From Verrucomicrobiota bacterium (GTDB lineage Bacteria; Verrucomicrobiota; Verrucomicrobiia; JABWAM01): a stretch of 64,000 nt of DNA. A program made the translations under genes and the position numbers. The notes under the pieces are model-generated. The model made no database searches. It was given only the letters and a program-made list of their open reading frames with translations, and was not told the DNA's origin. The stretch spans positions 819 to 64,818 of the forward strand of contig JACQHZ010000291.1 in assembly GCA_016198745.1 (NCBI GenBank), read 5' to 3'. Positions 16,613 to 40,344 of this stretch are shown piece after piece. Position 1 is the first letter of the stretch, and each line of letters starts with the position of its first letter.

Positions 16613-17650
16613 TCAGAAGTTGTCCGTGCCGCTCCAGAAAAGGAATCCCTGCGCTCGCAGGAAATCGGCGAGCGCGTCGCTCCCGATAACGCGGTGCGGG
16701 AAGGTCGGCGAACGTCGCAGCAGGCGGACCATGCCGCCATATTGTTCGGCCAGTTCGATCCGCAGCGGGGACTGCTTTTCCAGATCCTCGCTGCGCGGAA
16801 AGATGGCCGCCCAGCGGCGCTCCCATTCCGGCGACCAGAAATTGAGCGCAACCTTGCGCTGGCGCAACGCATGTCTCGCCACCGCCGCGAGAACAGGTTT
16901 CCAGGAAGCCTGGTCACGCGCTGCAACTTCGACCACGGTCTTCCGGTCGGGCGCGACAAGAAAATAACCGGCCGTATTTCCTTGGATTTGAACCACGCAA
17001 ATCGTGAAGCGCGGCACCCATTTTGAGCCGTGCGGGGTCTGGCGATGGCGCAGCCAATCGGACCAGTATTCCCGGTTGCGCACCGCGCCGCCCCAGCCGC
17101 CGCGATTGGAAAACGCATAGCAAGTCTGGAGAAACGAAACGTCGCTTTCCCATCGCACGGCGCGCACCCGCACCTGGCGCGCGATGGGATCAAAGCATTT
17201 TGACTCGAAATGAATCGTCGCCTTCCATGCTGGAACGATTCGATAACCCGATCCGCCATAGACCTTCGGATTACCGAACAGAAATGCAAAATCGAATTTG
17301 CGCCGCGCCATCCAGGCGTGCGAAAACGCCAACAGCTTGCGGATCAATCCGCGCCCGCGCCAGGCCGGCCGCGTGAAGACATTGCCGATGCATCCCGCGC
17401 GCGCGACGCCGGCGCCCGCGCGGAGGCGGCGCTCGAAAACATGCAAGCCCGACGCAATCCTGCCGTCAACGGTGACGACGTGCGTGTGCGCCGCTGTGGT
17501 TCCCGGATCGCGCCTCAAAGTTTCCAACGCCCAGTCCGGGTTCTGCTTGAACGCGCCGCCGTACTGGCGGAACGACTCGGCCATTGCCTCGGCAATCGCC
17601 GCAATCTCGGTAGCGCGCGCCTCACGAACGCGAATGGATTCCGTCTTCAT
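16613..17650 (-). CDS. GNAT family N-acetyltransferase (Eis-like, with C-terminal extension)
   Basis: 345 aa. The N-terminal GNAT fold signature is IRVREARATEIAAIAEAMAESF...GIGNVFTRPAWRGRGLIRKLL. Its first 70 codons are duplicated at 40130-40344. Confidence 0.7.
   Translation of the reverse strand: MKTESIRVREARATEIAAIAEAMAESFRQYGGAFKQNPDWALETLRRDPGTTAAHTHVVTVDGRIASGLHVFERRLRAGAGVARAGCIGNVFTRPAWRGRGLIRKLLAFSHAWMARRKFDFAFLFGNPKVYGGSGYRIVPAWKATIHFESKCFDPIARQVRVRAVRWESDVSFLQTCYAFSNRGGWGGAVRNREYWSDWLRHRQTPHGSKWVPRFTICVVQIQGNTAGYFLVAPDRKTVVEVAARDQASWKPVLAAVARHALRQRKVALNFWSPEWERRWAAIFPRSEDLEKQSPLRIELAEQYGGMVRLLRRSPTFPHRVIGSDALADFLRAQGFLFWSGTDNF
17440..17650 (-). repeat. Direct repeat copy A (5' 210 bp of GNAT gene)
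   Basis: About 85-90% nucleotide identity to 40130-40344 in the same orientation. Homology begins exactly at the ATG and ends after codon 70 or so. Confidence 0.7.
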
Positions 17651-17788
17651 GTTCGACGAATGGTAGTGCGCAACCTCCCTAAAATGGAATCATAAATCCT
17701 TCGGCTGTTGCTCGACACGGATCGCGCCCGAGAACCATCGGTCGCGTGGACGGCACCGCCGCGTGGACGGATTCGATGGATTTGATTT

Positions 17789-20455
17789 TCATGGGCCGCT
17801 CTTGAACGAAGCCGACCAGACGAAGCTCGAATGGGGATTGTTTTCATTGGGTCGGGGCGCATCCACGGTCCAGCCCCGCGCGCACGCGACCGGTTGTGAG
17901 GCGGGCGAATGGAGCACGCCTCGCGGCGCGCCACGGCCTGGGGCGATCTCGACATCCGCGGGAAGCGTCATTTCGAGTTTGCGCGCGCCGGTCGAGATCG
18001 AGCGCGCACCAAGCAGGATGATTTTCCCCGCCTGATCGTCGCGCAAGACCGCCTCGGCGAGACACTCGCCATCGTCCCAACGAAAGAGTTGATTATGGGT
18101 GAGATGGAGACGGGCGGACTGCGGGAGCGTGACACAGCCTTCCCTATAAGTCACACCGGTCGCGTCGGCGCTGAGCGCGAACACCAACCGTCCATGGGTT
18201 ACACGCCCGGCCATCTCCAGTCGCCAGCGGCGGTAGCGCGGGAATTTTGCGTCGCGGAAGTTCTCCCTTCCCGTGAAGTTGAGACCATACGCATAGGACG
18301 GGAACCAATACGGCTCTCGCACGCTCACGCGGGACGCGTGCGACGAATCCAAGACCGTGGCGAAAATCTCGCCCTGCTCGTCGTCACTGAGTCCTTTGCT
18401 GCCGCCCTTTGTTCCCGCGATAAGATTGGCTTGTCCGCCGGTGAGCCGGTAACTCGTGTCGCTGATCTTGCTGACCGAGCTGGAGCAATGCAGATGCGTG
18501 GCGAATCGGAGCGGCCTGGTTCCCTCAAAGGAATCGATCAGCACGATGGCGCCCGTGCGGTAATCCATCAGGAAAATCCGGTCCGCTTCCTTGACCCCGT
18601 GTTTTGGATGCAATGCCGCTGTGATCACCGCGTGCGCGTAAATGAAGCGATCATTGATGAAACAGCGGCGGATGTGCGCGCTGACTTCGGGGCCGGTATC
18701 CCCGCAGAGCCACTGACCTTGGACGCGCGCGCCGCCGTCCTCAAAACACATTGTGTTCAACAGCGAACTGTCAAGCGCGTAACCGCCGATGTTGATCAGC
18801 ACGGGCGATCCGTCAACCGATACATCGATCTGCGCCAGGGACATGCCGAGTTCGCGATTGTGCGGCATCAGGCTGAAGCTGACGCACCTGCCCGCCTTGA
18901 GGCCCGCGCTGAATTGGCAGCCGATCGTCTTCTTCCCGCGTGAAACGCACACGATCTCGCCCGTGTCGCGCGCGAAGCGCGGACTGGAAGGAAACGCGGC
19001 GGGCGGATGCGATTCCGCGGGCGCATAAAGCAGGTCGTACAACGTGGGCAGCAGATCGCCCGCCGCCTTGCGTTCCCGCTCGACAAAGGCTTGGTGGATG
19101 GACTCGATCCGCCGGGTCGGGTGAAAGCGGCAGAGAAACGCGGTGAGATAGCGGTGCTCATGGGTTCGCAGTCCGCGACCGATTTCCTGCGCGTTCGGCG
19201 TTTCGAAGCAGGCCAGCAATGCCTGGCCAAGGTTGTCGAGAAAAGGACTCCGGCTGAGTTCAGGGCGTTTTCCGGCGAAGGTGTGCGCAGCCGCGAGGTA
19301 GCGCGCCAGGTGCATCGGGTAATACGTCGCCCAGTTGGTCTTGCCGCCGGGCGGGAAAAGCCGAAAGCTGTCCTTGAAAAGCCCGTGGAAAAACGGCAGC
19401 GCCTTTCGCGCGCTGTCCAGATCGTCGTAGAAGCACATGCACGCCACGCCCACGCCCGCCCACGTGCCGAGCGCGTGCGCGTCGGGCGTCGGGCAGCCCA
19501 TGTACGCGCGCTGCAGCACGGTGAAATCGTAAATCTTGCGCAGATATTCGTCCGCCTTGGCCAAGATGATGCGACGTTCCTGCTGGTTGAACAGGTCGAA
19601 GGCGTATTCACGCGCGATACCCGTGTAGTACAGCGCGCTGCCAATGTCGCGGTCATTATCGCCTCCCATCAACAGGGGATCGGGTCGCGAGCTCCAGGTC
19701 GGGCGCCGGCACAGCGTCAAAATAGAATCCTTGAGCTTCCGTCCGATGGATTTCTCCTTGATGATCAAGTACACCAGAGCGGCGAGGTCGAGGTTGCACT
19801 GCTGCTTGAAAGGGAGATTTTCACTCGTGAGTTTCTCGATTGTCGTTCGGAACATGGGTTGCGACGGCAAATGCTTGCGAAGCCGCTTCAGGTCACTTGC
19901 CCCGATGTACACCCGGGGGCGCTGATGGCTTCTGGGCCGCAACTCACAGAGCAGGCGGTCGTCACGACGCAGTTCGATGTAGCGAACGTCTCTCCAGCGA
20001 ATGCGTCCATGGTCGTGTTCGACGAATTCGAGCACGAGTTCCGTTTCCTCCCCTTCCGCTTCGAACCCAAAATCCGCCCACAACCGATTTTCCGCGATCT
20101 GCTCCGGTCCGGGCATCGCAAACCACAGCCCGCCTTTCAAACGGCCGTTCACGAATGTTTTGGCCATGGGCATCGCCATGACATTTTGGAAATGATCGAG
20201 GTCCCACGGTCCAGTGAGCAGTTTCTTGCCATCGGGCACACGCACCATGAGCATCATCGCAGTTTTCATGTCGAACCTGCCCACCCTCGTTTCCAGCTTG
20301 CAGCGATAGAGACCCGCAGGCAGGCGAGCCCGTATTGTGAAGCGGTGGTCGTCCACGCGGATATCGCTTATGACACCGCACACGTCGCGCCATTCGCAGG
20401 GGTTGAAGCGGTTCGGCGCGGGTTGCAAATAGGCGATCAGGTCGTCATTCAACAT
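17789..20455 (-). CDS. Large alpha/alpha-toroid protein, heparinase II/III- or alginate-lyase-like (putative polysaccharide lyase)
   Basis: The ORF table gives 17789..20623; the start MLNDDLIAYL at 20455 is preferred because the upstream 56 codons are Arg/Pro-rich junk. It is the last gene of the 11-gene minus-strand operon. Family assignment is by overall pattern only. Confidence 0.4.
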   Translation of the reverse strand: MLNDDLIAYLQPAPNRFNPCEWRDVCGVISDIRVDDHRFTIRARLPAGLYRCKLETRVGRFDMKTAMMLMVRVPDGKKLLTGPWDLDHFQNVMAMPMAKTFVNGRLKGGLWFAMPGPEQIAENRLWADFGFEAEGEETELVLEFVEHDHGRIRWRDVRYIELRRDDRLLCELRPRSHQRPRVYIGASDLKRLRKHLPSQPMFRTTIEKLTSENLPFKQQCNLDLAALVYLIIKEKSIGRKLKDSILTLCRRPTWSSRPDPLLMGGDNDRDIGSALYYTGIAREYAFDLFNQQERRIILAKADEYLRKIYDFTVLQRAYMGCPTPDAHALGTWAGVGVACMCFYDDLDSARKALPFFHGLFKDSFRLFPPGGKTNWATYYPMHLARYLAAAHTFAGKRPELSRSPFLDNLGQALLACFETPNAQEIGRGLRTHEHRYLTAFLCRFHPTRRIESIHQAFVERERKAAGDLLPTLYDLLYAPAESHPPAAFPSSPRFARDTGEIVCVSRGKKTIGCQFSAGLKAGRCVSFSLMPHNRELGMSLAQIDVSVDGSPVLINIGGYALDSSLLNTMCFEDGGARVQGQWLCGDTGPEVSAHIRRCFINDRFIYAHAVITAALHPKHGVKEADRIFLMDYRTGAIVLIDSFEGTRPLRFATHLHCSSSVSKISDTSYRLTGGQANLIAGTKGGSKGLSDDEQGEIFATVLDSSHASRVSVREPYWFPSYAYGLNFTGRENFRDAKFPRYRRWRLEMAGRVTHGRLVFALSADATGVTYREGCVTLPQSARLHLTHNQLFRWDDGECLAEAVLRDDQAGKIILLGARSISTGARKLEMTLPADVEIAPGRGAPRGVLHSPASQPVACARGWTVDAPRPNENNPHSSFVWSASFKSGP

Positions 20456-20472
20456 CTTGAGTTCTCCTCGGC

Positions 20473-23178
20473 TCACAGGACTTCGAACCCGTACACCGCC
20501 AGCCGCCGCGTCGCGGTAACCCCCGCCAGGAAACACGTTTGCGGGCCGCCAAGCATCGGCATTTCGGGGTTGGCAAATTTGTGTTCGGGATCGAAGCCCG
20601 ATTCGAGGCCGATTTGAAAGCAATGCCTGCTGTCGGGCAGTCCCGCCGCCAGCAGCCGTCGCTGCATGATTCGTCGAGGATAGTACAGCCGCAGGCGCTG
20701 CGGAGGTTGTTCGTCGATCCGTACGATCGCAGTTCCAGCATGGGGCGAGGTTTCGATCAGCGCCACCAAGCCATCGCCCTGAAACTCACCGCAGATCGCC
20801 GCGCCCGTTTGCGTCGTCACCGCAAGTCGGTCGTTCGCCTCCTGCCAGCGCCCGTTCCGTTGAAGCGACGGATGATCGACGCTCAAGAAGGACCTGATCC
20901 GACGGGCATATCCCTTGATCGTTCGGTAGGAATAGCCGCGCAGGTAACAGCCGTTCCGACTGGCGCCGTTGTCGGACGATCTTACCCCCAAGAGGTCGTA
21001 GGTGAGGTAAGCCTGCCCGGCGCATTCATCAACCAGCAGGCCGTTATTCATGCTCGAATAGCCGTACCAACCGAAGTGGGCAGCCATTTCATGAATCCGG
21101 TCATCCTCAACGCAGACCTGCGTTTCAAACGACTCCCCGTTGTCGCAACTCACCGCCAGGATGATTCCGGGGCGGCCGATGGTTAAAAACAACGTCCCAT
21201 CCCGCAGAGTCCGAAGTTGCGGAGCAACTCCGCAAAGACCTGTTCGTTCAGGCGGACTCCAGGTGCGTCCGTTGTCGTCCGAAACACTCTTCATCAACGC
21301 CTGATTGAACCCTCCCGTTCGCGCTACCATCAATATCCGACCATTCGCGAGCTGGACTGCCGCCGCTTCGCAATAACCTTCTTCTCGAAGCCCGTCGTCG
21401 CGCATCGGCACAGCCACAGCGCGCCAGCGACGGAGATCGTCGCTGGCCAACACAAGCATTGAAGATCGCTCGTCGCCGGGAAGGATGCCATCCGCGAACA
21501 ACAAATAGCCGCCATCCTTAAGCGCCAGCAGTTGGTCGAGCGCCAACGGCATTCGCCCGCCGTTGTAACCGGCCATATCCACACGCGCCTGAACCAGTTC
21601 CTCATGTTGGTCTGTAGCGGTGAGCCGCAGGGTGAACGAGTCGGGGCATGCCTGTTCTCGGGGCATAATCCGACCATCGGGCAGCGCGTTTGTCACGTGC
21701 GGGAAAGAACACCAGCGTCCATCCGGGAGTTTAACGGCAGGGCGACCGTGGCCGGGTTCGACGGGTCGGTGGTTCTTCCACGTCCGCCCGTCGTCATCGC
21801 TTTCCGCCTGATGACGCGACGGGCGGGCGCGTTCGTTCACGCCGGGCAGGTGATCCGGTCTGCACACGTACTTGACGATCAATTTGCCGCTTTCTTTGCT
21901 GAGGACGTTGGGAAACCAGCAGTAGCTCGGCGCCGAGATGATTTCGTGGCGCGGCCCTGGTTCGAGAAACACGACGTTCGCGGGCGGTTCATACTGACCT
22001 GGCAAGGGACACGTGGACTCCATCGCCAGCAACACATCTTCCGCCGTAAAACGCCCCGGCGTCAACCGCCAGCTTCTCAACCATCCGTCCAGTTCTGCTG
22101 CGACATTCGGGTCGGCGAGCATTCCGCCCAGGGCGCAGCCGCCAACGACCATTGTCTCCCCGACCCGCAGCGGGTCCAACGCGTGAGCTTTGACCTGCTG
22201 CACGCAAGCATGGGATTGTCCGTTCCAGTAAATCGTCGCCGCTCCGTCCTCGTCCCAAACGGCCGCCGCATGATGCCAGGAGTGGGAGCGAAAGCCCTGC
22301 CCAAGGCACCACTCCCAGTAATACATCCACGGACACGGTTTTTCGCCGGCGTGAAGAAGAGGCTCCTGATTTTCCGCGCCGAAACTGAAGTACCCGTGTG
22401 CCATGTCGAAGAAGATATGGTTCGGGTGCGCCGCTTCCCACGCCGGCTGAAACCAGAAATCAATCATCCCGGATTTCGGAATCGAGCCGCGCGGAACGCG
22501 GACTTCGAGGCGATCGCGATCTCGCGCTTCGCCTCCGGGCACCCAGCTTCCCGGACACGGGAACAGCACGGACCGCCGGGCCGTTCGATAGGTTGTGACA
22601 AACGGCTCAAGCATCAGGCCATCCACGAACATCTCACCTTCTTCGACAATGACCGCCGCTTCGAGAGATCGCTTGGCCATCGGACCATCCAGCGCCACAC
22701 ACCAGCGTTGCCGGCGATCCACGACCATGAAGCCACGCTGAACTTCCAGGCTGTTGAGACCATCACGCAGTCTCAGCGACACCTTGCCGTGGCCGCGAAC
22801 ATGAGCCGAAAGTTGATAGATGACGCCGACGAAGGTCGTGCCTTCGTCCGATAGTTCGCCGAGCGAATCCCGGTGCAGCAAAGGCAGCGGCAAGATCGCA
22901 GGGCGATGGGAAGCGCGGATCAAAAGGCCGCGCCCCTTCTGGAACTCCAGGCCGTCGATCCTTGCCCAATCCTCGGGGACTCCCTGGAACGGCGCAAACT
23001 CTCGTGGCAACAGATTGCGCGTTTGTCGTCCAAGAAACAGGGCGGGTCCCGCCTTGGTGTTTTCGATGTGGGGAACGTTCGGGCCGGCGACACGGACGAA
23101 GTCGCTGCTCCACGAACTGCTGTTGCGCTGGAAGCGGCAAGGGCCGGAAAGGCCGGTGATAAACTTTTCCAGATTCAT
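20473..23178 (-). CDS. LamG (concanavalin-A-like) domain plus BNR/Asp-box sialidase-like propeller protein
   Basis: Start MNLEKFITGL at 23178 overlaps the sulfatase stop. Asp-boxes are SDDDGRTW, SDDNGRTW and SCDNGESF. The N-terminal 250 aa have a LamG-like beta-sandwich pattern. Confidence 0.6.
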   Translation of the reverse strand: MNLEKFITGLSGPCRFQRNSSSWSSDFVRVAGPNVPHIENTKAGPALFLGRQTRNLLPREFAPFQGVPEDWARIDGLEFQKGRGLLIRASHRPAILPLPLLHRDSLGELSDEGTTFVGVIYQLSAHVRGHGKVSLRLRDGLNSLEVQRGFMVVDRRQRWCVALDGPMAKRSLEAAVIVEEGEMFVDGLMLEPFVTTYRTARRSVLFPCPGSWVPGGEARDRDRLEVRVPRGSIPKSGMIDFWFQPAWEAAHPNHIFFDMAHGYFSFGAENQEPLLHAGEKPCPWMYYWEWCLGQGFRSHSWHHAAAVWDEDGAATIYWNGQSHACVQQVKAHALDPLRVGETMVVGGCALGGMLADPNVAAELDGWLRSWRLTPGRFTAEDVLLAMESTCPLPGQYEPPANVVFLEPGPRHEIISAPSYCWFPNVLSKESGKLIVKYVCRPDHLPGVNERARPSRHQAESDDDGRTWKNHRPVEPGHGRPAVKLPDGRWCSFPHVTNALPDGRIMPREQACPDSFTLRLTATDQHEELVQARVDMAGYNGGRMPLALDQLLALKDGGYLLFADGILPGDERSSMLVLASDDLRRWRAVAVPMRDDGLREEGYCEAAAVQLANGRILMVARTGGFNQALMKSVSDDNGRTWSPPERTGLCGVAPQLRTLRDGTLFLTIGRPGIILAVSCDNGESFETQVCVEDDRIHEMAAHFGWYGYSSMNNGLLVDECAGQAYLTYDLLGVRSSDNGASRNGCYLRGYSYRTIKGYARRIRSFLSVDHPSLQRNGRWQEANDRLAVTTQTGAAICGEFQGDGLVALIETSPHAGTAIVRIDEQPPQRLRLYYPRRIMQRRLLAAGLPDSRHCFQIGLESGFDPEHKFANPEMPMLGGPQTCFLAGVTATRRLAVYGFEVL

Positions 23179-24551
23179 CTTGCGTGTCCGTATGTTGATC
23201 GCAGCCAGGTCTCCAGCTTGTCGCGGAGCAGCCTGGCCTGGAGCGGTGGTTCCTTTACACCAAAGCACAGGTTGTTCAACTCGTGCGGATCGGCGGCTAA
23301 ATCATACAAGGTGTCGAACCGTTGCTCGGGCCAGCGCGTATAAGCCCAGCGCACGTCGCGGTAGCGCCATTTGTTCGGCTCCGCAAACATGAACGCCTCG
23401 CGTCTTGGCGGGCGGGCGCCTTTGATCGGATCGAGCAAATTGAATCCCTGACAGTGGCGTGGCACGGGCGCCCCGGCTGCCGAAAGAATCGTTGGCATGA
23501 GGTCCACGTTTGTTGAAAACTCCGCGCAAGTGCCGCTCGGCACTTGCCCGGGCCAACGGATCAAGAGCGGCACCTTCATGTCGGCGTCACACGGCAGATA
23601 GGCTTTCCACAGGAGATCATGATCCCCGAGATAATCTCCGTGGTCGGAAGTAAAGATCACCAGAGTGTTTTCCGCCACCTCTTGCCGCTCCAGGAGCTTG
23701 AGCACACGACCGACCCATTCGTCGATCAAGGTCACGTTGCCGTAGTACAAAGCTCGAATCCGACGGATCTCAGCGTCGGGAATGCCCCACAAATTCAACT
23801 TTTCGATGCCGAACGCCGTCGTTTCCTCGCGCACGATCGGGGGAACTCGATCCAGTTCACCATCGGCCCGCCGCGGCGGCGGGACCTTTACGGGATCATA
23901 CATCGAGGCATACGGCTCGGGCGGATCATAGGGATCATGCGGACCGCAGAAGGAAACCCAGGCAAAGAACGGCCTTGACGCAAGCCTGCGTTCAGCGATC
24001 AATGTCTCCAACATCTCGATGCTTCGCTGTCCCACAAAGCCGTCAATATGATCTTCCGGGTTCAGCGGGCTGACCATCGCCTTGTTGGCTTTGCCGAAAC
24101 CGGGAGTTTGGTGGCCGATCACACGCCCTTGCAGGTCGTGGTCTCTGATGTGCGCTTGATACTCATCGGGTTCCTCCGCGTACTTGCCTTCGATGATAAC
24201 CCGTCGCTGAAAGCCACAGAGCGCATCCCACGGGACGAAATGCATTTTCCCGATGCCGACCGTGCGATAGCCGTGGGCGGACAGCAGGCCGGGCAACGTT
24301 GGCAAGCTCGATGGAACCCACCGGCCGGCCCCGCTTTGCATGACGCCGTGGATCGTCGGGTAAACGCCGGTGAGAATGCACGCGCGCGATGGCTGACAAG
24401 CCGCGGCGGCGCAATAGCTGTGAACGAAACGAACCCCTTCCGCCGCCAGCCGATCCAGGTTGGGAGTTAAGATCGAAGGATTGTCGTTCGCTCCGACCGC
24501 ATCCCAGCGTTGCTGATCGGTTGTGATGAGCAGGATGTTGGGCGAATTCAT
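23175..24551 (-). CDS. Sulfatase (S1 family, formylglycine-dependent)
   Basis: Contains ILLITTDQQRWDAVG and the CQPSRACILTG formylglycine motif (C-x-P-S-R), plus GKMHF and the C-terminal sulfatase pattern. 458 aa. Confidence 0.9.
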   Translation of the reverse strand: MNSPNILLITTDQQRWDAVGANDNPSILTPNLDRLAAEGVRFVHSYCAAAACQPSRACILTGVYPTIHGVMQSGAGRWVPSSLPTLPGLLSAHGYRTVGIGKMHFVPWDALCGFQRRVIIEGKYAEEPDEYQAHIRDHDLQGRVIGHQTPGFGKANKAMVSPLNPEDHIDGFVGQRSIEMLETLIAERRLASRPFFAWVSFCGPHDPYDPPEPYASMYDPVKVPPPRRADGELDRVPPIVREETTAFGIEKLNLWGIPDAEIRRIRALYYGNVTLIDEWVGRVLKLLERQEVAENTLVIFTSDHGDYLGDHDLLWKAYLPCDADMKVPLLIRWPGQVPSGTCAEFSTNVDLMPTILSAAGAPVPRHCQGFNLLDPIKGARPPRREAFMFAEPNKWRYRDVRWAYTRWPEQRFDTLYDLAADPHELNNLCFGVKEPPLQARLLRDKLETWLRSTYGHAR

Positions 24552-24699
24552 GGTTCAAAGAATCGCTGCATGTCCACAATCAGCAGCGCGGACGACTCAG
24601 GGCAAAAACGTCGCACCCGACAATTCCATGCCGCAATTACCCTCAGCCATTCTTCCGTTTTCTTCATCAACGATTCGGCGGTAAAATAGGCTTCTCGTT

Positions 24700-26100: not shown

Positions 26101-26855
26101 GAACGCCTTTCGGAAATCGCGGGGTGGTTTTCCCCCATCAAGCGGCTGGACAACCGCCGCAGCAGGGAAAGTTCGACGATCAAAGCGAACGCGCCAGCCA
26201 CGGCCAGCGATTCCTTCACTCCCAGGATCCGGGCCATCAGTCCGGCGCTGGCTTCGCCGAGAATGTTCCCGACCAGCATGGTGGCCATCAGTCGGCCGAC
26301 TTGCGGGACCACGTGATCCACGGAGGTATGTTGTGCGGCCATCTGGATCAGGCTCGGGAAGAACAAGCCGTGACCCGTCCCAAACAGCAAACCGATCATG
26401 GCGAACTCGCCGGGTTGCGACGCGAACGCAAGCGCCAGGGCGCCGAACGGCACCAAGCAACCCGTCGCCACCAGCCCAACCCCCGGCAAAAGATGCCTCA
26501 ATCGCGTTTCCAAGAAGGCGCGCGACAAAAATGCGCTGGCGCCATACCAGCCGGTTAAGGTACAACCGCGACAACCAATCCTTCCAATGGCGCGGCCCCC
26601 GGTCGCCGTCCCCGCAAGAAAAGCGAAACTGAAAGCCGCCATGATCCACCCATGCCACGCGAGGTCGAGTCCCTCGCGTTGAAACAAGCGTGGCAAAAGG
26701 AGCATGAGACTCATGGATCCGCCGATCAGAATCTGGCCAATCCATACGACCATCATCCCCGACCGCTTTTCGTCACCGGGGTTCATGACGGTGTTGTTCC
26801 TTTCACCGGCCGCCCGCCCTCGCGTTTCGGAGGAAATTGAAGATGCCATGAACAA
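26097..26855 (-). CDS. MFS transporter, half-length (6-TM, 252 aa); possible split or decayed gene
   Basis: Hydrophobic segments throughout with an MFS-like pattern. It overlaps both neighbours, by 72 nt with the upstream gene and by 4 nt with the downstream gene. Confidence 0.5.
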   Translation of the reverse strand: MFMASSISSETRGRAAGERNNTVMNPGDEKRSGMMVVWIGQILIGGSMSLMLLLPRLFQREGLDLAWHGWIMAAFSFAFLAGTATGGRAIGRIGCRGCTLTGWYGASAFLSRAFLETRLRHLLPGVGLVATGCLVPFGALALAFASQPGEFAMIGLLFGTGHGLFFPSLIQMAAQHTSVDHVVPQVGRLMATMLVGNILGEASAGLMARILGVKESLAVAGAFALIVELSLLRRLSSRLMGENHPAISERRS

Positions 26856-27913
26856 TGGGCGCAGGCGGCCGGGCCATGCGCGGCGAAGACGCCGCCCAGA
26901 CGAAAAAGCTCGGGGTGGCTGCCGTTGGCTTTACAGAGCGGAATCGAATTTCCAAACGCCTCATGGCAACCGGCGAAGGCCGGGCAATCCTCGCGGACCA
27001 CGTCGCCAGCCTTCGCTGGTGCGATCGGTTGGGGCGGAATCGCGAAGGATTTCGCCCCCCCCTGCCGGCCGCGCTTCCGGGCTCTTAGCATTGCCGCCGC
27101 CTTTTGCAGCGCATCCAGAGCCAGATCGTCGCTTCCACGATCGGGTGGGCGCAGCACCAGACAATACGGATCATCCGCGAATAGGGTTGCCATGAAGCAG
27201 TCGAAATCCCGCGCGCGCATCAGCCCCGAAACACTCTTGCCGATGGGACCGGTTTTGAGAATGCCTGCGGCCCGGCAGACATCCTGCATGACGCCGGGGT
27301 ATTCATACTGAATGCGTCGGCCCGTCACGCAATGATTGAGATGTCTTTCCTTGGGCCAATAATGGCCTAAGTAAGGCACTTGAAGAATCTCTTCGTAGTA
27401 ATGCCAAAGCGTCACGGTGTTGACCTGCACGCCAAGAGTCAGAATGCAGCCATCGAGTTGAAGCAACGCTTCGAATGGATTCCCCCGCCCGCATGGCGTG
27501 GGCGATGCGCGGTGCCCCTCCACCAACCGCTCCGCTGAAGCTCCCAAGGCAACCCACGAATGCGTTGGATGGCAACTACGCAAACTGCCCGTGCGCTGTC
27601 GCACTTCTTCGGCGATCACGCCCTGAAAACCCGGCAACTTGCTCGGACAAAGACGCTGCGGACAACGAGCAGCGCAATCGCTGTTGGTGAAATTGGCGGG
27701 GTCGCCCCAGACGCTGTCGCGGAAAGCGGGAACAAGCAAGGTCCCGCGCGGGCCGACTGCTTCGAGCAGGGCATCGACGACGGTGGTTGCGCCGCCTTCG
27801 ACATGTCCGAGCGCGCTGAGCGAACTGTGCATCATCACCGCATCGCCCGCGCGCACGCCGAGCGCGCGCAGGTCGCGGACGATTCGTGATGGGCCAATAC
27901 CAGACGCCTTCAT
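26783..27913 (-). CDS. AAC(3)-family (aminoglycoside N3-acetyltransferase-like) acetyltransferase with a Cys-rich C-terminal extension
   Basis: The N-terminus (DLRALGVRAGDAVMMHSSLSALGHVEGGATTVVDALLEAVGPRGTLLVP) closely matches the Antibiotic_NAT family signature. At 376 aa it is longer than the usual 270 aa or so. The tail contains CPAFAGCHEAFGNSIPLCKANG...ACAHCSWH. Confidence 0.7.
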   Translation of the reverse strand: MKASGIGPSRIVRDLRALGVRAGDAVMMHSSLSALGHVEGGATTVVDALLEAVGPRGTLLVPAFRDSVWGDPANFTNSDCAARCPQRLCPSKLPGFQGVIAEEVRQRTGSLRSCHPTHSWVALGASAERLVEGHRASPTPCGRGNPFEALLQLDGCILTLGVQVNTVTLWHYYEEILQVPYLGHYWPKERHLNHCVTGRRIQYEYPGVMQDVCRAAGILKTGPIGKSVSGLMRARDFDCFMATLFADDPYCLVLRPPDRGSDDLALDALQKAAAMLRARKRGRQGGAKSFAIPPQPIAPAKAGDVVREDCPAFAGCHEAFGNSIPLCKANGSHPELFRLGGVFAAHGPAACAHCSWHLQFPPKREGGRPVKGTTPS

Positions 27914-27915
27914 CC

Positions 27916-29325
27916 TCAGGTTCGTTCCAATGTTTTCAAGGCGCGGTCCAGCAGCGCCTTGACCTTCTGCTCCGTGGCTTCATCCATGCCCGGCGCCGGA
28001 TCGGGGCCGGCCATGATCTCTTCCCACCGACGACGCGCGCGATCTTCCAGGGAAGTTCCATCCTTGCTCTGCCAAAAATGAAATCCACTGTGGCTGAACA
28101 ACGGCGCCTTCCACAACGCCGTGCGCACATGTGCCGCCGTGTGGTCGGCGCCAATGAAACCGCCCCCTGCTCCAACGGCGCGGATGGTTTCAAAAGCCAG
28201 GTGTTCATCATCAAACGATTCACGCCGGCCGAGGCGATTCAAGGCGTCGGCCAGCTCATCATCGATGATCAACTGGATCGGGCTGCAGACTTCGTCGCCG
28301 GAGAGGAGACCCGCGTTGATCGTGGCGGCATTGAAATACAGCAGGGACGGAATCACGGTCAGCATTTTCTGTGCCGCCGCCTCCGAGCCGGGTTGCTTGG
28401 CATCCGCCAGCCCGGTCTGGCCCACGTGCTGCGCGCCATAGAACCGCGCCATTTGGCCGTGGAGCAGGTTGGCCACCGCATTTTCCGGACGGCCATAACA
28501 GTAGGCCGCCCGCCGCATATCCAGCGGCAGAATGGAGCAAAGAAAATTCAACGTTCGGGTTCCATAGTACAGACGCTGTAAAATGTTGCAGAAAATGTCC
28601 TCGGCCAGGTGTTGCGCCAGCGCGCCCGCGAGCGTAATCGGTCCGCTGCCGCCCAGGGTCGTCATATTGGAGATCGAACACGGATAACCGCGTTCAGCGA
28701 AGTAGAGGAACTGCTCGGCATCCGTAGCGGCAAGTTTGAGCGGCGAGATAAGGAACATCGTGCCGCGCATGGATTCTTTCAGCGGCATGCCGAGCGCCTC
28801 CGCGCGCAAACCATGGAACTCTTCGATGAAGGGGCATAGTTCCAAACTCTGAATGCCCTGGTCCATGTCGATGCCCAACTTCCAGCAAAGATATTTCACA
28901 TGGAGCGGATGGATCCGGTGCGGCGCCGGCACCGGACAACCCAGGGTGCCGATGCCAGTGACGTTGGGCATCGCCTTGGCCGTCTTCACGTACGAGGCCA
29001 TCCGATCCTCCGTCCAATCCTCGAATTGATTGGTTCTCGGATTCAGGTATTTCCCGATGTAAATGCCAACGCTGCACTCCACGCGCGGTTCCGCGACGCG
29101 CTCCGCGGCGGGTTCCGACTCGCCGATAAACCGCTCAATCAACGCCTGGGGAAAACGTGCGACCTGGGTCGTCCGGTTGACATCCGCCCCAAAATCAACC
29201 AGTCGATCAAGAATTCGGTTGCTCTCGATCTTGACGCCGATTTCCGCCAGGATGCGCAACACAGCGCGGTGGATGCGTTCCTTCTCGCTCGCAGTCAGTT
29301 GTTGAAAGCCATGGATCGTTTCCAT
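27916..29325 (-). CDS. MttB-superfamily (trimethylamine methyltransferase family) protein, non-pyrrolysine member
   Basis: Start METIHGFQQLTASEKERIHRAVLRILAEIGVKI at 29325 gives 469 aa. The N-terminal motif and length match the MttB/MtgB family. There is no in-frame TAG. It is translationally coupled to the AAC(3)-like gene (stop/start overlap at 27913-27916). Confidence 0.7.
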   Translation of the reverse strand: METIHGFQQLTASEKERIHRAVLRILAEIGVKIESNRILDRLVDFGADVNRTTQVARFPQALIERFIGESEPAAERVAEPRVECSVGIYIGKYLNPRTNQFEDWTEDRMASYVKTAKAMPNVTGIGTLGCPVPAPHRIHPLHVKYLCWKLGIDMDQGIQSLELCPFIEEFHGLRAEALGMPLKESMRGTMFLISPLKLAATDAEQFLYFAERGYPCSISNMTTLGGSGPITLAGALAQHLAEDIFCNILQRLYYGTRTLNFLCSILPLDMRRAAYCYGRPENAVANLLHGQMARFYGAQHVGQTGLADAKQPGSEAAAQKMLTVIPSLLYFNAATINAGLLSGDEVCSPIQLIIDDELADALNRLGRRESFDDEHLAFETIRAVGAGGGFIGADHTAAHVRTALWKAPLFSHSGFHFWQSKDGTSLEDRARRRWEEIMAGPDPAPGMDEATEQKVKALLDRALKTLERT

Positions 29326-29329
29326 TGTT

Positions 29330-32023
29330 TCACCGTATATGTTTGGCGCGCGCGGCGATTTCAGCTTCCGCCAGCGCGCGATTATAGATTTCAGCCTGGC
29401 CGAATGACCCGGCAAAATAATCGCCGATTTCCTCCACGGCGCCTTCGGGATACAACGTGTTGCCGTTGCGTCCGAAATGGATATCGCCGGCGTGCGCCGG
29501 CAACTCGGCAGCAGCGCCGGCAGCCGCCTTTTTCCCGTCCACGTAAAGGATCAACCGATCCGCCGCTACGGTGGCGCCCGCTTGGTTCAGCACAAGCGCC
29601 GCGTGATGCCATTTGTTCGGCTCGATTTGATCGTACGTAAGCCATGTCCCCGGCCAGACCGCCTTTGCCCACATGCCTCCTCGCAGGGCGCCTTTGTGGA
29701 TAAAGAGATTGAGGCCGTTCCCAGATCCGCCTTCCTCATACAACATCTGGCGTTTGGTCACATCGGCCGCCCTGAACCATAGAAGAACGGTGCGATTGGC
29801 GTAGGGACCGCCCGAATTGATCGTCGGGCAATTCAACACGGAGACATAACTCTCCTTTCCGTCAAGTTCCAGTGCTGCGCCTCGCTGCGGATCATCCACC
29901 CAGTTGCTTCCCGCGACGAAGCCGAGATTGTTGTTGCCCGACGAGTCGTAAAGGAAACGATAACAGGGTTTGTACCAGCGCCCCGCGCCCCAGATCCACT
30001 GCAGCAAGCCCTGTGAGGGCGGGCGTTTTATGATGTAGCGCAGCACCAGGTCCTTCTCTGTCTGCAGACCGACGAATATCGGGACCGCGTGAGCAGCCTC
30101 GGCCTTCGCATCACCCGAGGCCCTAAGCTCGACAAGGTACTGGCCCGTCGAACTGAACGCGTGCGTCACTTTCTCGCCTTCGCCGTTCTTGCCGTCGCCG
30201 AAGTTCCACGTCAGTTTCGTCAGTTTTCCATTCGGCGCAAAAGGATCGAGCGCGGTGAATTCGACGGGCTTGCCTGACTCGACGAACTGCGACGCGACAC
30301 CAATCGCCACACTTGGCGGACCGCCGCGCCAGACCACGGTCATTTTTTTCGATTGTTCCGATACATGGAAAAATGCGCCTGCTTGCGGCACATCGACCGT
30401 GATTGGCCCGAATTCGGGCACGATGATCTCGACATTGAGGCGGGGGCGGCGCGGCGCGTGCGCATAGACGAGCCACTCGCGGGTCGGCGGTTTGCCTTTC
30501 GCCAGCGCAAGAGCGTACACGGGAATCTCGGTTTCGAGCGTCCACGGCCATTTTGCATCGAGACTCGTGTCGAGCAAAAACCAACGGTCCTCCTTCTTAT
30601 ACTCATCGGGAATGTCGGTCTGGTAGGGATGCTGATGGGCGCGATTGGGCACAAGTTCGCCTTTCCGCCAAAACTCGCGCAACACGGCGTTCGTATGGAC
30701 GCGGTCCACCGCCTCCACGATTGACATGAAATACGGCCCCGCGTACTCGACTGTCTCCAACCAACCGCGAAACTCGCGCACGACGCGCGGCCGCAACAAC
30801 CACATCCCGAACTGCACAAAACCGCCGTAACGCTCTGGCGTGAACGACTGTCCGAGGCGCGCATAGAATTTCCGTTTCGCGTTGGGTTGATCGGTCGCAT
30901 CGCCGTCCCATGTGGACATCTCGAACCAGAACCGCGGATTGAGCTTGTGCGCTTCTTGCAGCATAAAAATCCAGTTCATGGACTCGATCTGCGGACTCCA
31001 CACCGTGAAATCGGTGATCGGCATCCAGTTGTGGAGATAGTAGGAGGGCGAACCGCCGCCCCACGCCAGCGGCCCGGAATCAATCCGTCCGGGGAAATAC
31101 CCGGAGTACAGCTTCCAGTATTCAGGCGGTTCCATCGGCCGTCCCATGTGCGGAGGGCCGAGCACTTCATAACCAACGAACATGGCGTTCTTCTTCCACG
31201 CGGAATTGACCAATCCCTCCCGCATCGCCGCCTGCAACGCGCGGTAGCGTTCGATCCATCCTTCGGACACGACTCTGCGCTTGAAATCATCGTCGCGCCC
31301 CTTGCCATACCGTTCCAGGTATCCCTTGGAAGTCTCGACTTCATTCCATTGCAACTTCGAGTGTTCGTTGTTAGAAATGAAAATCACCAGCGGCGGATCG
31401 GGATACCATTCCTGGAGTTTCTTCATGAAGATGCCAGCCGTCCATTTGCCGCCCACTTCTCTCCAAGGTTCCACGGGGCCGAAGGGCGAGACCTTGGGTT
31501 GAATCGTGCCATCGAGTCCCGCCTCGTTGGGATTCTTTTCGGGTGGCAGATCGAGGTACGCCTTATCGGTGGTCAACAACGATTCCCACTGCGTGCCGAG
31601 AAACGTGAGAGGCAGTCTGAGTTGCGCCGCTTTTTGGATGCGCAACTCGTATTCCTTCATCTTGGCCTCGATCCACTTTTCACGCTCGGGGGCGCCCGGC
31701 TTCCATGTTTCCTGGAGCCACCGGTCCGTCGGCGGATGCGAAAACCAGGGCAGGACATGGCGCCCCTGATCGAGCAACTGAAACTGGTATTCTGGAGTGA
31801 ACCCATCGGCTCCGCCTTCGCCGACACCCCAATGCGCCGCCAATGGAAGTGGTCGTCCCGCTTCGCTGTGGTTCGGGCGGAGCGCCTCGACGCGGACCGC
31901 TTCGGGCACGGGCAGCGGTTTGTCCTCTGCCCTCGAATGTCCTGACGGCAAAAAGAGGGTCATCGCGTGGATGATGAAGATGGCGGTTGAGAGAATAGTC
32001 GTTGCGCCTCGCACGAGTCTCAT
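29330..32023 (-). CDS. Secreted multidomain protein: N-terminal glycoside-hydrolase-like region plus PKD domain plus C-terminal LamG domain
   Basis: Signal peptide present. The PKD signature is LTWNFGDGKNGEGEKVTHAFSSTGQYLVELRASGD. The C-terminal LamG pattern is RLILYVDGKKAA. 897 aa. Confidence 0.6.
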   Translation of the reverse strand: MRLVRGATTILSTAIFIIHAMTLFLPSGHSRAEDKPLPVPEAVRVEALRPNHSEAGRPLPLAAHWGVGEGGADGFTPEYQFQLLDQGRHVLPWFSHPPTDRWLQETWKPGAPEREKWIEAKMKEYELRIQKAAQLRLPLTFLGTQWESLLTTDKAYLDLPPEKNPNEAGLDGTIQPKVSPFGPVEPWREVGGKWTAGIFMKKLQEWYPDPPLVIFISNNEHSKLQWNEVETSKGYLERYGKGRDDDFKRRVVSEGWIERYRALQAAMREGLVNSAWKKNAMFVGYEVLGPPHMGRPMEPPEYWKLYSGYFPGRIDSGPLAWGGGSPSYYLHNWMPITDFTVWSPQIESMNWIFMLQEAHKLNPRFWFEMSTWDGDATDQPNAKRKFYARLGQSFTPERYGGFVQFGMWLLRPRVVREFRGWLETVEYAGPYFMSIVEAVDRVHTNAVLREFWRKGELVPNRAHQHPYQTDIPDEYKKEDRWFLLDTSLDAKWPWTLETEIPVYALALAKGKPPTREWLVYAHAPRRPRLNVEIIVPEFGPITVDVPQAGAFFHVSEQSKKMTVVWRGGPPSVAIGVASQFVESGKPVEFTALDPFAPNGKLTKLTWNFGDGKNGEGEKVTHAFSSTGQYLVELRASGDAKAEAAHAVPIFVGLQTEKDLVLRYIIKRPPSQGLLQWIWGAGRWYKPCYRFLYDSSGNNNLGFVAGSNWVDDPQRGAALELDGKESYVSVLNCPTINSGGPYANRTVLLWFRAADVTKRQMLYEEGGSGNGLNLFIHKGALRGGMWAKAVWPGTWLTYDQIEPNKWHHAALVLNQAGATVAADRLILYVDGKKAAAGAAAELPAHAGDIHFGRNGNTLYPEGAVEEIGDYFAGSFGQAEIYNRALAEAEIAARAKHIR

Positions 32024-32035
32024 TCGTTTTTCCTT

Positions 32036-34944: not shown

Positions 34945-34956
34945 ACATCTCCATTT

Positions 34957-37900: not shown

Positions 37901-38250
37901 AGAGGAAAATTCCTCATGTCAATCCAGTAGCTCGGTCGAGCGCCGCCGGGCGCTTGTTCCGGCGCGCCGACCCACAGGCCTTGACCAATCCTCCCCGGCT
38001 GGAAGACCGACACGCCGGTTGTTGCCGCGGCGTTCGTGGCCGCCGATTCCGCGCGACCAAGCGAAGTGTCCCAGGAAGACCCGATCACGGGCGCCATCGT
38101 TCCGTCCATCGGCGCGTAAAAAAAGACCTTGGTTATGGCGTTGCTGCTGCTGTTTTGACTCTCGGCGAGCAGGTTCATTGCCCCATCGCTCAAGACCAAC
38201 AGAGAAAGAAAAATGCTTTGGACGATGGGTTGTGGAAAGATTCGTTTCAT
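34957..38250 (-). CDS. Secreted LamG-domain plus GH42-like TIM-barrel glycoside hydrolase candidate
   Basis: 1097 aa. The N-terminal LamG pattern is RFYFDGELVG. The remainder resembles GH42/GH35-type barrels. Family assignment is weak. Confidence 0.45.
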   Translation of the reverse strand: MKRIFPQPIVQSIFLSLLVLSDGAMNLLAESQNSSSNAITKVFFYAPMDGTMAPVIGSSWDTSLGRAESAATNAAATTGVSVFQPGRIGQGLWVGAPEQAPGGARPSYWIDMRNFPLDRGSVMLWFKPKGAQIGTLYCSGNATFEMYQTSGDAMLFYAGTHQDFVKGDLHPFMNDLSERWHFVVGVWDADKRRFYFDGELVGSRDGALPLNKCQYGVYPRFYLGFRHGSTSEPDSGFANAILDEFAILRSPLSDEEVKRLWRDGNDPAYKGLIQSLGGGILLHAPRRGYRRGEQVALSVLSYSRGTEARIVAHAEGSTNKWVLGALPSHENRFALNTTDLRPGRYGVSAELWDGAKQVASSPEIVLGVQPESPPAFSLGLWGGITESWQYEMLRKWHIDTWVTYELFPESGLEARMNEAYTYGISAMVNFNVFHHSFYPRISPEKTRDYFDKDGRLSPKGQAEICQILAWADGKDFNNSTGSLPSSIASPSSPVAQEFIKEFVLSVMKRLKDYPGLRFVSFQDEYDLRLEEVNKRLQIGDYNQHAVAHFMQQTGLKGPAFPPVSEPATIFPDQEPYIQWARIIGLPGDCSAPAFERAYRQCHEWVKTVRPDVTTLNISGSEGGELDCVMDYAYTSTWEPTPGYTVSYGRLDFLYDRHRYRQKQRPFKPLAGLPGWWSGDMDQKSKDADLSWCVGDFRLNTQMAIAKGVSMIQWALGDWNGSGAKKEQGILSRDDLKAEFIRWADWCHRYGPMLARLEFRPNRRVAVLLSESNLAGWVHEGHRWPGFLDYTYAALRSANAPVDLVLDQDVLEGRLQEYQALVLFHHRYSAKSVWQKIVEFAKTPGKRLFFSDPKRSDLLPPSAMDIEVVNHELSATGNDPIHRVINTHGEQVMKLKETVTPVLKPADLIVSGSDFISPHQLYGGQARYVFLVNLNLWEPQKIGVSFVHPGDAAYDVMKHERIAVRRKSERIEWNGAIAPADWQMVMLPPQAVESIDLRVNVKEREIELAGAVCGSKKESIPAIWPLEVTVEYPNGQATSHSFVAATDARGCFAARISLGKLTDPPGKYRVSVKEGITGKEAHGTASVGSTNTKHGDTP

Positions 38251-38277
38251 GGTATTGCCAACTCCATTTGAAGACGG

Positions 38278-39681
38278 CTAGAATGGGTAGTCTCCCCCGT
38301 TGGGATGAACGCTACGACCTTCCACGAAACTCCACGAATACCAGGCGACATGCCAATCACAGAAGAGGACGTTGATCCCATTCGAATGCCTTGGAAACGC
38401 GTAGGAGGTGGGTATGGTGAAAGTGCTTGATTGATAAAATCCGCCGTCGAAGCAGAAACAAATCCTCGATGGAATCGGGACGGCCAACGCGGATGACTCA
38501 AGCACTTGATACTTGATCGGATTGGTGAACAAGTAGCTTCTGCCGTAGGTCGTGTCGATGCCCGGTTCGCCGGGCATCGGGGTTGACGGACAATCCACGC
38601 TGCATGGATAAGCAACGCGCGTGCCCAACGGTCCGCCATACTGCGGATATTTCTTGCCGAGGTACCCCATCCAATCCAGCGTGGCAACTCCGCGCAGCCA
38701 TTCCGGCCAGGGCGCGAAATAGACGGAAGCCGGCGGAAGATACTCCTCATTGTCATTCATATACAGGACCAGCGCCGTTCCGATTTGCTTCAGGTTGTTC
38801 ATGCACGCAATCGATTTCGCCTGGTTTCTCGCCGATTTGAGCGATGGCATCAGCAGGGCAGCAAGAATGCTGATAATGGCGACCACCACCAGAAGTTCTA
38901 TTAAGGTGAAGCTCCGCTTGGACGACGCCCCGGTTCTTCGTTTCGGGATCATCTCGCCAACCGATCCCATGTGCCGCATCATCCATTGTCGGTCTTTTTC
39001 TTGGGCGGCGGCCGCAAGCAGATTCGAAAAGATTGGCGCCGTATGCCGGTAAACCAGTTCGACAGCGCCTTCCGCATCACGAGTTCGGAGAGCTTGAATG
39101 ATGCGACGGTGAGTGCGAAGGACGCCTTCGGTGTCCGCGCGATGGTTTTCGACGCTGACGCCGCTCATCCAACTGAACACCTGCACGTGCGCCCCCTGGA
39201 CGAGCGCCTCCACGCGCTGGCTGTTGGCGAGGCCGACCAACAGACGGTGAAACTCCAGGTCGTAATGATCCGCCGCGCGCCAGTCGCCCTTTCGCGACGC
39301 CGACTCCATCGCGTCGCAGGCGTGTTCCATTTCAGCCAGCTTGAACTCCGAGAACCCTCTTCGGCACGCGATCCGCACCGCAAGACACTCCAGCGCTGAG
39401 CGAATCTCGAAGGTCTCCTCAATTTCCTCCACCGTGCAATGCCGCACAAAAAACCCCGCATTTCGCACCCGCTCCACCAGTCCTTCGCCGACCAGTCGCA
39501 TCAGCGCCTCACGAATGTGAAATCGTCCTGCGCCGAGATGCTCGGCGAGCGGCGTCTCGGTCAGGTGCGTCTCCGGTGGAAATTGCCCTTCGAGAATTGC
39601 ATAACGAATTTCTGAGTACGCCCGATCCACCGGCGAACCGGCGGTCAAGGGCGGATTCAGCCTGGATTTCATTCTGATCAT
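38278..39681 (-). CDS. Fusion protein: GntR/FadR-family regulator (HTH plus FCD domain) fused in-frame to a pseudopilin-like TM helix and DUF1559 (H-X9-DG) domain
   Basis: - Residues 1-230: GntR HTH ([52 protein letters not shown]) plus an FCD-like helical domain.
- Basic linker: [11 protein letters not shown].
- Then [25 protein letters not shown] (N_methyl motif) and a DUF1559 domain ending [13 protein letters not shown].
- Single uninterrupted 467-codon ORF, first gene of the 11-gene operon. Confidence 0.75.
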
Positions 39682-39694
39682 GCGTATTGTTTAT

Positions 39695-39708
39695 CATTGT
39701 TAACAATG
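39695..39708. promoter_or_regulatory. Perfect 14-bp palindrome CATTGTTAACAATG (GntR-type operator candidate) inside an AT-rich promoter region 39685-39830
   Basis: It matches the GntR-family operator consensus (T.GT-N-AC.A). It lies 14 bp upstream of the GntR-pilin fusion start codon. The surrounding 150 bp are markedly AT-rich compared with the window. Confidence 0.4.
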
Positions 39709-40017
39709 ACTGTCAATATAAAAAAGAGCGCGAAACAACAAGCAAATGGTTACAGCCAGGCAGCGCCAAATCGACCTCTTTTGCATTAAACGTTTACATA
39801 AGTTAGAACCGTGACGATTGTGTCAAGTTAGGCGGCTTTTTTGAGGGGCGTTTTGATCTGGGCGTGATCGAGCAGGCGCTGCACTTCCGTTTCTCCAGGC
39901 GCGACCCGGGGCGGTGTAACCGTCCGCGTGGGATTGGCGGAGCGCTTGCGAGCAGTCAGCCCCAGCGTGGCCGCCGGCGGATGATGCGTTTGCTCGAACG
40001 GGAGGAAGCTGTTCTAA

Positions 40018-40344
40018 TCACGCCATGAGAAACGCCCGAGTCACAACGATCGCGCTCGTTCCCGCCAGAGGTCTGAACGAACTGCGCCGCCATCTCGCGG
40101 AAGTGTGAAAAACGGCCGCAACGGAGAATCCCGACGCAATCTGGCCCCCCACGGTGACGACGTGCGTGTGCGCCGCTGTGGTTCCCGGATCGCGCCTCAA
40201 AATCTCCCGCGCCCAGTCCGGGTTCTTCTTGAATGCGCCGCCGTACTGGCGGAACGACTCGGCCATCGCCGCCGCAATCGCCGCGATCTCGGCTGCGCGC
40301 GCCTCACGAACGCAAATGGATTCCGTCTTCATGTTCGACACCAT
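40018..40344 (-). pseudogene. GNAT acetyltransferase fragment (N-terminal ~70 codons homologous to gene 16613..17650, then unrelated sequence)
   Basis: MKTESICVREARAAEIAAIAAAMAESFRQYGGAFKKNPDWAREILRRDPGTTAAHTHVVTV is nearly identical to the N-terminus of the complete GNAT gene. Homology stops near 40130. Confidence 0.6.
40130..40344 (-). repeat. Direct repeat copy B (5' 215 bp of GNAT gene)
   Basis: Same orientation as copy A at 17440-17650, and 22.7 kb away. Homology starts at the ATG in both copies. Confidence 0.7.

Follow-up and report, generated by a model that had tools for sequence, protein, structure and literature searches.

A truncated GNAT-family gene copy in a probable rearrangement scar between two glycan-degradation operons of a Verrucomicrobiota bacterium

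A 64,000-nt stretch of DNA from a Verrucomicrobiota bacterium (the whole stretch is referred to below as the window) contains a long catabolic operon with the beginning of one and the same GNAT-family gene found on either side of it. Such an arrangement raises the question of how a gene and its fragment came to flank an operon, and what the repetition means for the operon enclosed. The sequence of the locus is a contig from a metagenome bin (MAG). An earlier, sequence-only reading regarded the locus as a block lying cleanly between two repeats.

The direct repeat and the enclosed operon

Pairwise alignment and a window-wide repeat search gave one direct repeat, 17445-17657 versus 40127-40339, which is gap-free over 213 nt. 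The two copies, designated A and B, are identical at 194 of the 213 positions (91.1%, 19 mismatches; blastn E 2.3e-83), with the longest identical run being 51 nt. They are 22,682 nt apart from start to start, with 22,469 nt between them, and represent the sole repeat of at least 40 nt within the 64-kb window. The collinear, same-orientation repeats of about 215 bp described earlier are thereby confirmed. Their limits had been placed exactly at the ATG of the GNAT gene and about 70 codons further on; the end agrees with codon 68, while the start had to be moved, as on the minus strand the repeat begins 7 nt 5' of the start codon (GTCGAAC preceding ATG). No homology between the two repeat neighbourhoods was detected outside the 213 nt, either at the DNA or at the translated level. 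The features of this part of the window are as follows.

16445-16487, no strand: hairpin with a 20-bp stem between the convergent GNAT and DUF1841 genes, likely terminator of the transcript of unit 1 and GNAT (folding)
16613-17650, minus strand: intact 345-aa GNAT gene, MBI4026318, the last gene after the block (Acetyltransf_9 domain)
17445-17657, minus strand: repeat copy A, 7 nt of upstream sequence and codons 1-68 of the intact GNAT gene (alignment, blastn)
17789-39681, minus strand: bracketed operon, unit 1, 10 long ORFs (ORFs, Pfam)
39682-40126, minus strand: 445 nt from copy B to the first ATG of unit 1, presumed promoter/operator region (two TTGACA boxes and a palindrome)
39694-39709, no strand: perfect 16-nt palindrome TCATTGTTAACAATGA, candidate GntR-type operator, unique in the window
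40127-40339, minus strand: repeat copy B, 91% identical GNAT 5' fragment, putative pseudogene remnant (alignment, blastn)

The repeated segment was correctly recognized earlier as the duplicated 5' end of a GNAT gene, with copy A belonging to a full GNAT ORF and copy B being a truncated copy. The product of MBI4026318, whose contig in the Verrucomicrobia MAG has a length of 81,429 bp, shows the Acetyltransf_9 GNAT domain with E 5e-14. With HMMER, 1.84 billion representative proteins were searched exhaustively, giving 807 relatives, of which the nearest full-length ones (about 330 aa) are only 26-31% identical. Just one match is close, P0123 (104 aa, with 86% identity in residues 1-71), and it proved to be the product of copy B.

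The bracketed operon starts with a fused ORF (38278-39681) in which a GntR-FCD regulator continues in frame as a DUF1559 domain of the prepilin type. It is followed by a 1097-aa Laminin_G_3 protein, a protein of 1100 aa, an 897-aa PKD/Laminin_G_3 protein, an MTTB-like protein of 499 aa, an AAC(3)-like protein of 376 aa and a protein of 681 aa; the operon ends with a sulfatase/SGSH_C protein of 458 aa, a BNR protein of 931 aa and a protein of 944 aa. The neighbouring ORFs are separated by short gaps or overlap. The region between the repeats had been described as a complete 11-gene operon with its promoter. A long operon and an upstream region are indeed present there, but the gene number does not hold, since 10 long ORFs were found; the public annotation has 12 CDS in the block (MBI4026319-330), as obtained by accession arithmetic. 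Scans for sigma-70 and terminator consensus sequences near both copies gave results at or below chance.

The GNAT gene follows the preceding gene after a gap of 138 nt. Because this gap contains no terminator-like site and a strong hairpin occurs only after the GNAT gene, where a 201-nt region folds with z = -5.1, GNAT is probably co-transcribed with the block as the last gene of the bracketed operon's transcript. In this case the proximal repeat would lie inside the operon and not outside it.

A string of gene remnants around the distal copy

Within the window, similar glycan-degradation units follow one another as a chain, each comprising a regulator, a DUF1559 pilin-like protein and large hydrolases, lyases or sulfatases. 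Copy A is found at the 3' end of unit 1 and copy B at the 3' end of the unit upstream, designated unit 2. A difference between fused and free DUF1559 proteins in the residue at -1 of the prepilin site was considered and rejected, the three copies read having S, A and A in this position. The features between the two units and the intact part of unit 2 are as follows.

40018-40332, minus strand: 104-aa ORF HY360_15205 (MBI4026331), annotated as a hypothetical protein, GNAT codons 1-68 and 36 unrelated codons
40340-40505, minus strand: spacer of about 170 nt from the GH42 fragment to copy B (no Pfam match)
40506-41201, minus strand: internal fragment of a GH42 beta-galactosidase, residues ~58-290 of ~675 (alignment, Pfam)
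41202-41549, minus strand: 5' fragment of a P0015-like gene, 116 codons, fused in frame to the GH42 fragment (90.5% protein identity to HY360_25105 residues 1-116)
41594-47460, minus strand: unit 2, intact part, consisting of a LacI-PBP and DUF1559 fused ORF, a 235-aa protein and a 1121-aa heparinase II/III-like protein

The ORF of copy B (104/108 aa) is located on the same contig as the intact GNAT gene. As noticed previously, the distal copy runs into unrelated sequence, which here begins after codon 68 and continues for 36 codons. The domain search gave no match for this ORF. When 14 full-length members of the family were aligned, 20 columns proved invariant, and 19 of these, among them R98 and G101 of the acetyl-CoA loop, are situated past residue 68. 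Since nearly all the invariant residues of the family thus lie past the truncation, copy B is presumably not an active acetyltransferase. A 27-codon plus-strand ORF abutting the copy B breakpoint was considered as a truncated Phd/YefM antitoxin and dropped, having no Pfam support.

The annotated "beta-galactosidase" P0002 (363 aa), which precedes copy B, consists of two gene fragments fused in frame. It aligns to GH42 enzymes of 614-699 aa only over their residues ~58-290, the best match being 84% identical, and Pfam covers only positions 49-269 of the 376 of the GH42 catalytic domain. The GH42 homology ends sharply at 41198/41201 and at 40506-40527. The first 57 codons of a GH42 gene, the nucleophile region and the trimerisation and C-terminal domains were not found anywhere in the window. 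The fragment keeps the acid/base motif known for GH42 (DNEIG) and stops before the nucleophile region (FGMMEM in P0003). Because parts of the GH42 domain are missing, the P0002 chimera is presumably non-functional, while keeping an open frame of 363 codons and being annotated as a gene.

An intact paralogue of the other fragment of the chimera is present in the same MAG, as judged by the shared locus-tag prefix: P0015 (HY360_25105, 379 aa) is encoded on a contig of 4,749 bp. No Pfam family was assigned to it, and its remaining 263 residues were not found in the window. For two of the three remnants, the same genome thus contains intact copies, from which they have diverged by about 10%.

The stretch of 1.9 kb separating the two operons therefore comprises, in this order, the 5' end of a P0015-like gene, the middle of a GH42 gene, about 170 nt, the 5' end of the GNAT gene and about 445 nt. 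The two spacers around copy B (~170 nt and ~445 nt) gave no Pfam match and have no similarity elsewhere in the window. All the identified remnants (P0015-like, GH42 and GNAT) are on one strand. Copy B is accordingly a member of a row of three or more gene remnants located between two glycan-degradation operons, so that the clean two-repeat structure assumed initially has to be abandoned in favour of a string of remnants of about 1.9 kb in which copy B is embedded. The presence of several remnants points to a multi-step or complex history and not to one simple insertion.

Several abrupt breakpoints of homology within 1.5 kb could also result from incorrect assembly. In this case, related strains or loci would have been misjoined at short shared k-mers, giving rise to an apparent fragment and a mosaic ORF; the origin of the sequence from a MAG contig and the exact 51-nt run common to both copies would fit this explanation. 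However, the 19 differences between the copies lie to either side of the 51-nt run, which means that both sequences must be present in the sample, and the breakpoints have no k-mer in common, as a chimeric join would need. Furthermore, the P0015-like piece and the gene of the other contig share only ~90% identity, and a 213-nt repeat with no more than 51 nt of identity is resolvable by paired short reads. The chance that the structure is an assembly artefact appears to be slim.

Divergence, recombination and mobile elements

Over the 68 codons, copies A and B differ with dN 0.064 and dS 0.22 (dN/dS 0.29). Because the copies are 9% diverged (dS 0.22), the duplication is apparently not recent, or a diverged donor was involved. 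The ~10% protein divergence of the P0015-like remnant is compatible with an age similar to that of the GNAT remnant. The dN/dS of 0.29 is lower than the value of ~0.5 or more expected if copy B had always been neutral, though 68 codons offer little power and this can be taken as a hint only. Of the 19 substitutions, 8 are synonymous versus 24% expected at random, with the same 68 codons providing little statistical power. The dN/dS value, within the limits of 68 codons, hints that copy B may have been functional part of the time or may originate from a diverged functional homologue. The view that the repeat marks a past duplication or insertion event is upheld in the sense that it marks a past duplication or rearrangement.

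The repeats were also supposed to be substrates for RecA-mediated deletion or tandem amplification of the block. The minimal efficient processing segment for RecA-dependent exchange is shorter than the 51-nt identical run. Homologous recombination depends on identity, and a divergence of 9% should depress exchange strongly. The supposition can therefore be kept in a weakened form: the 51-nt run makes exchange possible, while the divergence should strongly reduce it, and now and then the operon could be lost or amplified in tandem through RecA-dependent exchange across the repeat. Such an exchange, if happening, would join the GNAT halves into a chimeric but complete GNAT gene. In the predicted recombinant, unit 2 would be followed immediately by this full-length chimeric GNAT, and the operon would be either lost or amplified.

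In this respect the locus resembles amplifiable or deletable units such as the AUDs of Streptomyces and the tandem amplifications of Salmonella and E. coli, in which direct repeats of a few hundred bases also surround a catabolic block. However, the repeats of such units are usually near-identical (IS elements, rrn operons, REP sequences or recent duplications), whereas here the identity is 91%. It might be suggested that the repeat is kept because it lets the catabolic operon be amplified in tandem or excised in a regulated or selectable way, or because the 104-aa product has its own role. This would agree with the direct orientation of the copies and with an identical run exceeding the minimum for RecA-dependent exchange; besides, no terminator-like structure was found in unit 2 before copy B, so that the fragment may be transcribed. 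On the other hand, the copies are 9% diverged with no sign of homogenisation by gene conversion, the fragment has lost almost all of the conserved residues, and the searches gave no second example. A maintained function of this kind is highly improbable, and the repeat presumably has no function of its own.

No integrase, recombinase or transposase domains were found in those ORFs of the window that reach 100 aa, no tRNA or tmRNA genes in the 64 kb and no terminal inverted repeats at the block ends. Since integrase, transposase and tRNA are all missing, a classical mobile element is unsupported. The same opinion had been expressed from the lack of an integrase or transposase, and the domain searches agree with it.

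The GC content of the block is 0.59-0.62 compared to 0.55-0.59 in the flanks; the GC3 ranges overlap, and the tetranucleotide correlations differ slightly. GC3 amounts to 0.65-0.73 in the block, the remnants and the GNAT gene, versus 0.54-0.64 in the three intact genes of unit 2. The composition of the block departs from that of its flanks only slightly.

Genomic islands and integrative elements share with this locus a multi-gene block between direct repeats, but an integrase, a tRNA target and a marked shift in composition are all lacking here. The att direct repeats of such elements have a short core, unlike the 213 nt of diverged coding sequence found here. A composite transposon needs an IS element or transposase and terminal inverted repeats at both ends, and neither is present.

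A similarity also exists to the Campbell-type single crossover, which likewise leaves flanking direct repeats with the upstream copy truncated and the downstream copy complete. According to this explanation, a circular or linear molecule with the 22.5-kb operon and the 5' segment of a GNAT gene, which probably came from a relative diverged by ~9%, was inserted in a single step by recombination with a resident GNAT gene at the end of unit 2, and the other remnants are older and unrelated. The geometry of the repeat is exactly that produced by a single crossover with a 5' gene fragment in the same orientation, the dN/dS of 0.29 suits two functional orthologues which diverged before the event, and the slightly higher GC3 of the block, GNAT and remnants relative to the three intact unit-2 genes would agree with it. 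However, the explanation needs a donor in which the operon lay beside a GNAT homologue, and no GNAT relative with an identity above 31% was obtained in the exhaustive searches. It also has to treat as a coincidence the two more remnants beside copy B, one of which has a ~90% identical paralogue in the same genome, and the compositional difference is small. Furthermore, the locus has no plasmid, phage or integrative backbone, the divergence of its copies amounts to 9%, and neither a donor nor an empty site was found. Single-step insertion is unlikely, although its probability is appreciable.

Origin of the arrangement

In our opinion, copy B is probably a non-functional, 3'-truncated GNAT pseudogene within a rearrangement scar between two glycan-degradation operons; this reading is accepted with moderate confidence. 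Followed along the direction of transcription, the scar would consist of 116 codons of the P0015-like gene, an internal third of the GH42 gene joined in frame, about 170 nt, 68 codons of the GNAT gene and about 445 nt, the last stretch carrying the promoter of the next operon. It would have been formed by one or more old duplicative rearrangements which proceeded without an element-encoded recombinase, the events presumably being illegitimate recombination or deletion. As a result, the 22.5-kb operon would now be flanked by the GNAT remnant on one side and by the intact GNAT gene on the other, the latter now probably being the last gene of the operon's transcript. The order of events could be either of two: insertion of the operon beside or inside a GNAT gene already present there, or decay in place of a second GNAT paralogue ending unit 2.

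The arrangement has much in common with partial-gene pseudogene remnants, for which a truncated copy and an intact copy in the same genome, the lack of an associated recombinase, sharp breakpoints unrelated to domain boundaries and other adjoining remnants are likewise characteristic. It differs from the usual remnants in two respects. Here the remnant and its intact source, in direct orientation, exactly flank a complete 22.5-kb operon, and two unrelated remnants are fused in frame and annotated as a beta-galactosidase.

All three remnants might also have been stitched together in one MMBIR-like template-switching event, which relocated or duplicated the 22.5-kb operon at the same time. This version is rather improbable. 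If it were true, PUL-like operons of Verrucomicrobia would be shuffled as units without mobile-element machinery, and in-frame chimeric ORFs would be by-products of this process.

The comparison with relatives covered several collections. Searches of the protein database, GTDB genomes and JGI metagenomes gave neither a close nor a syntenic relative, and the scans of the genome and metagenome collection revealed no relatives of either the 1121-aa boundary gene or P0015. A profile-based scan for GNAT-family loci returned five only, all from Armatimonadota, with ~27% identity and in unrelated contexts. P0015-like or GNAT neighbours were not found beside intact GH42 relatives in the contexts examined, a result which speaks neither for nor against a possible ancestral order P0015-GH42-GNAT. 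In a contig of Chthoniobacteraceae (L007), an intact GH42 gene is the terminal gene of a DUF1559-led operon of similar build, which also encodes Laminin_G_3 and Antibiotic_NAT proteins. This terminal position agrees with that of the GH42 remnant at the end of unit 2.

With the scar as the preferred reading, the repeat would date and place a rearrangement which assembled two neighbouring glycan-degradation operons in the genome of an uncultured member of the Verrucomicrobia with no mobile-element genes taking part. It can be regarded as a routine evolutionary footprint, a known kind of genomic scar which raises no new mechanism or question. The analysis has also exposed two errors of the public annotation, namely the 363-aa "beta-galactosidase", which is a chimera, and the 104-aa "hypothetical protein", which represents a GNAT remnant.

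Regulators joined to DUF1559 proteins

Regulator and DUF1559 sequences stand together in three units of the window:
38278-39681 (-), fused ORF of a GntR-FCD regulator and DUF1559 (MBI4026330, 464 aa)
39694-39709, perfect 16-nt palindrome TCATTGTTAACAATGA, with a TTGACA box on one side and the start codon (ATG) of the GntR-FCD ORF on the other
45706-47460 (-), fused ORF of a LacI-PBP regulator and DUF1559 (MBI4026335, 572 aa)
61870-63054 and 61112-61873 (-), regulator and DUF1559 gene of the third unit

GntR-FCD and LacI-PBP are two distinct one-component regulators, and each runs in frame without a stop into a prepilin-type leader (…KRS|FTLIELLVV… and …ATA|FTLIELLVV…) followed by a pilin-like DUF1559 / H-X9-DG domain. 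Both ORFs are annotated publicly as one protein each. The third unit encodes its regulator and its DUF1559 protein in two distinct ORFs with a 4-nt overlap. The two in-frame fusions, together with this overlapping pair, suggest that the regulator and the DUF1559 protein are functionally linked. It can be speculated that the fused ORF is a ToxR-like membrane-anchored regulator with DUF1559 as its periplasmic sensor domain.

The palindrome TCATTGTTAACAATGA agrees with the GntR/FadR operator type T.GT..AC.A and occurs once in the window, where 0.16 matches at ≤3 mismatches are expected by chance. It is a candidate autoregulatory site of the GntR-FCD ORF. Since the ATG lies just ~12 nt downstream, the leader of this transcript would be very short, as the spacing suggests.

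Possible substrates of the gene set

The following genes may bear on the substrate:
16613-17650 (-), GNAT
23175-24551 (-), sulfatase with an N-sulphoglucosamine sulphohydrolase C-terminal domain
26783-27913 (-), AAC(3)-like N-acetyltransferase
27916-29415 (-), MTTB-family (trimethylamine methyltransferase-like) protein, within the glycan operon
41594-44959 (-), heparinase II/III-like protein
1205-1969 (+), URO-D-fold ORF covering only profile positions 147-346 of 346

In the lysosomal heparan-sulfate route, N-desulfation is followed by glucosamine N-acetylation and then by cleavage. The sulfatase, the two acetyltransferases and the heparinase-like protein, which co-occur on the minus strand of the window, run parallel to this route; by analogy, the set may serve the degradation of N-sulfated glycans. 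The URO-D-fold ORF may be 5'-truncated, and P0015 (379 aa, intact paralogue in the same MAG of the gene fragment at 41202-41549) gave an MtaA/CmuA match below threshold (E 0.0035). Together with the MTTB-family protein, these two give a hint of a module with methyltransferase or demethylase activity on methylated sugars, but a corrinoid protein did not turn up.

Related operon, chimeric ORF and probable terminator

The L007 metagenome contig (ENA ERZ27256370 k141_439558) carries at 160-10040 an operon of DUF1559, a HEAT/GH2_N protein, a 1082-aa Laminin_G_3 protein, a 906-aa Antibiotic_NAT-containing protein and GH42 (P0009, labelled Chthoniobacteraceae), followed by a GntR-PBP / DUF1559 / GH123 unit. 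Its proteins share only 25-40% identity with those of the window, except GH42 (59%). This distant verrucomicrobial lineage repeats the gene-family vocabulary and operon grammar of the window.

In the word-indexed protein search, true homologues can escape when Ala- or Arg-rich words fill the 8000-candidate limit. The GNAT query returned only itself in this search and 807 relatives in exhaustive HMMER; an 88%-identical 68-residue match inside a concatenated query also escaped the word-indexed search.

Two further features are:
40458-41549 (-), MBI4026332, 363 aa, annotated beta-galactosidase, chimera of two gene fragments
16445-16487, hairpin with a 20-bp stem in the intergenic region where GNAT and DUF1841 converge

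MBI4026332 joins 116 residues from an unrelated gene to an internal GH42 fragment that has neither the nucleophile region nor either of the two C-terminal domains, and is most likely a pseudogene wrongly annotated as a gene. The hairpin, enclosed in a 201-nt region with a folding z of -5.1, is likely a bidirectional terminator.
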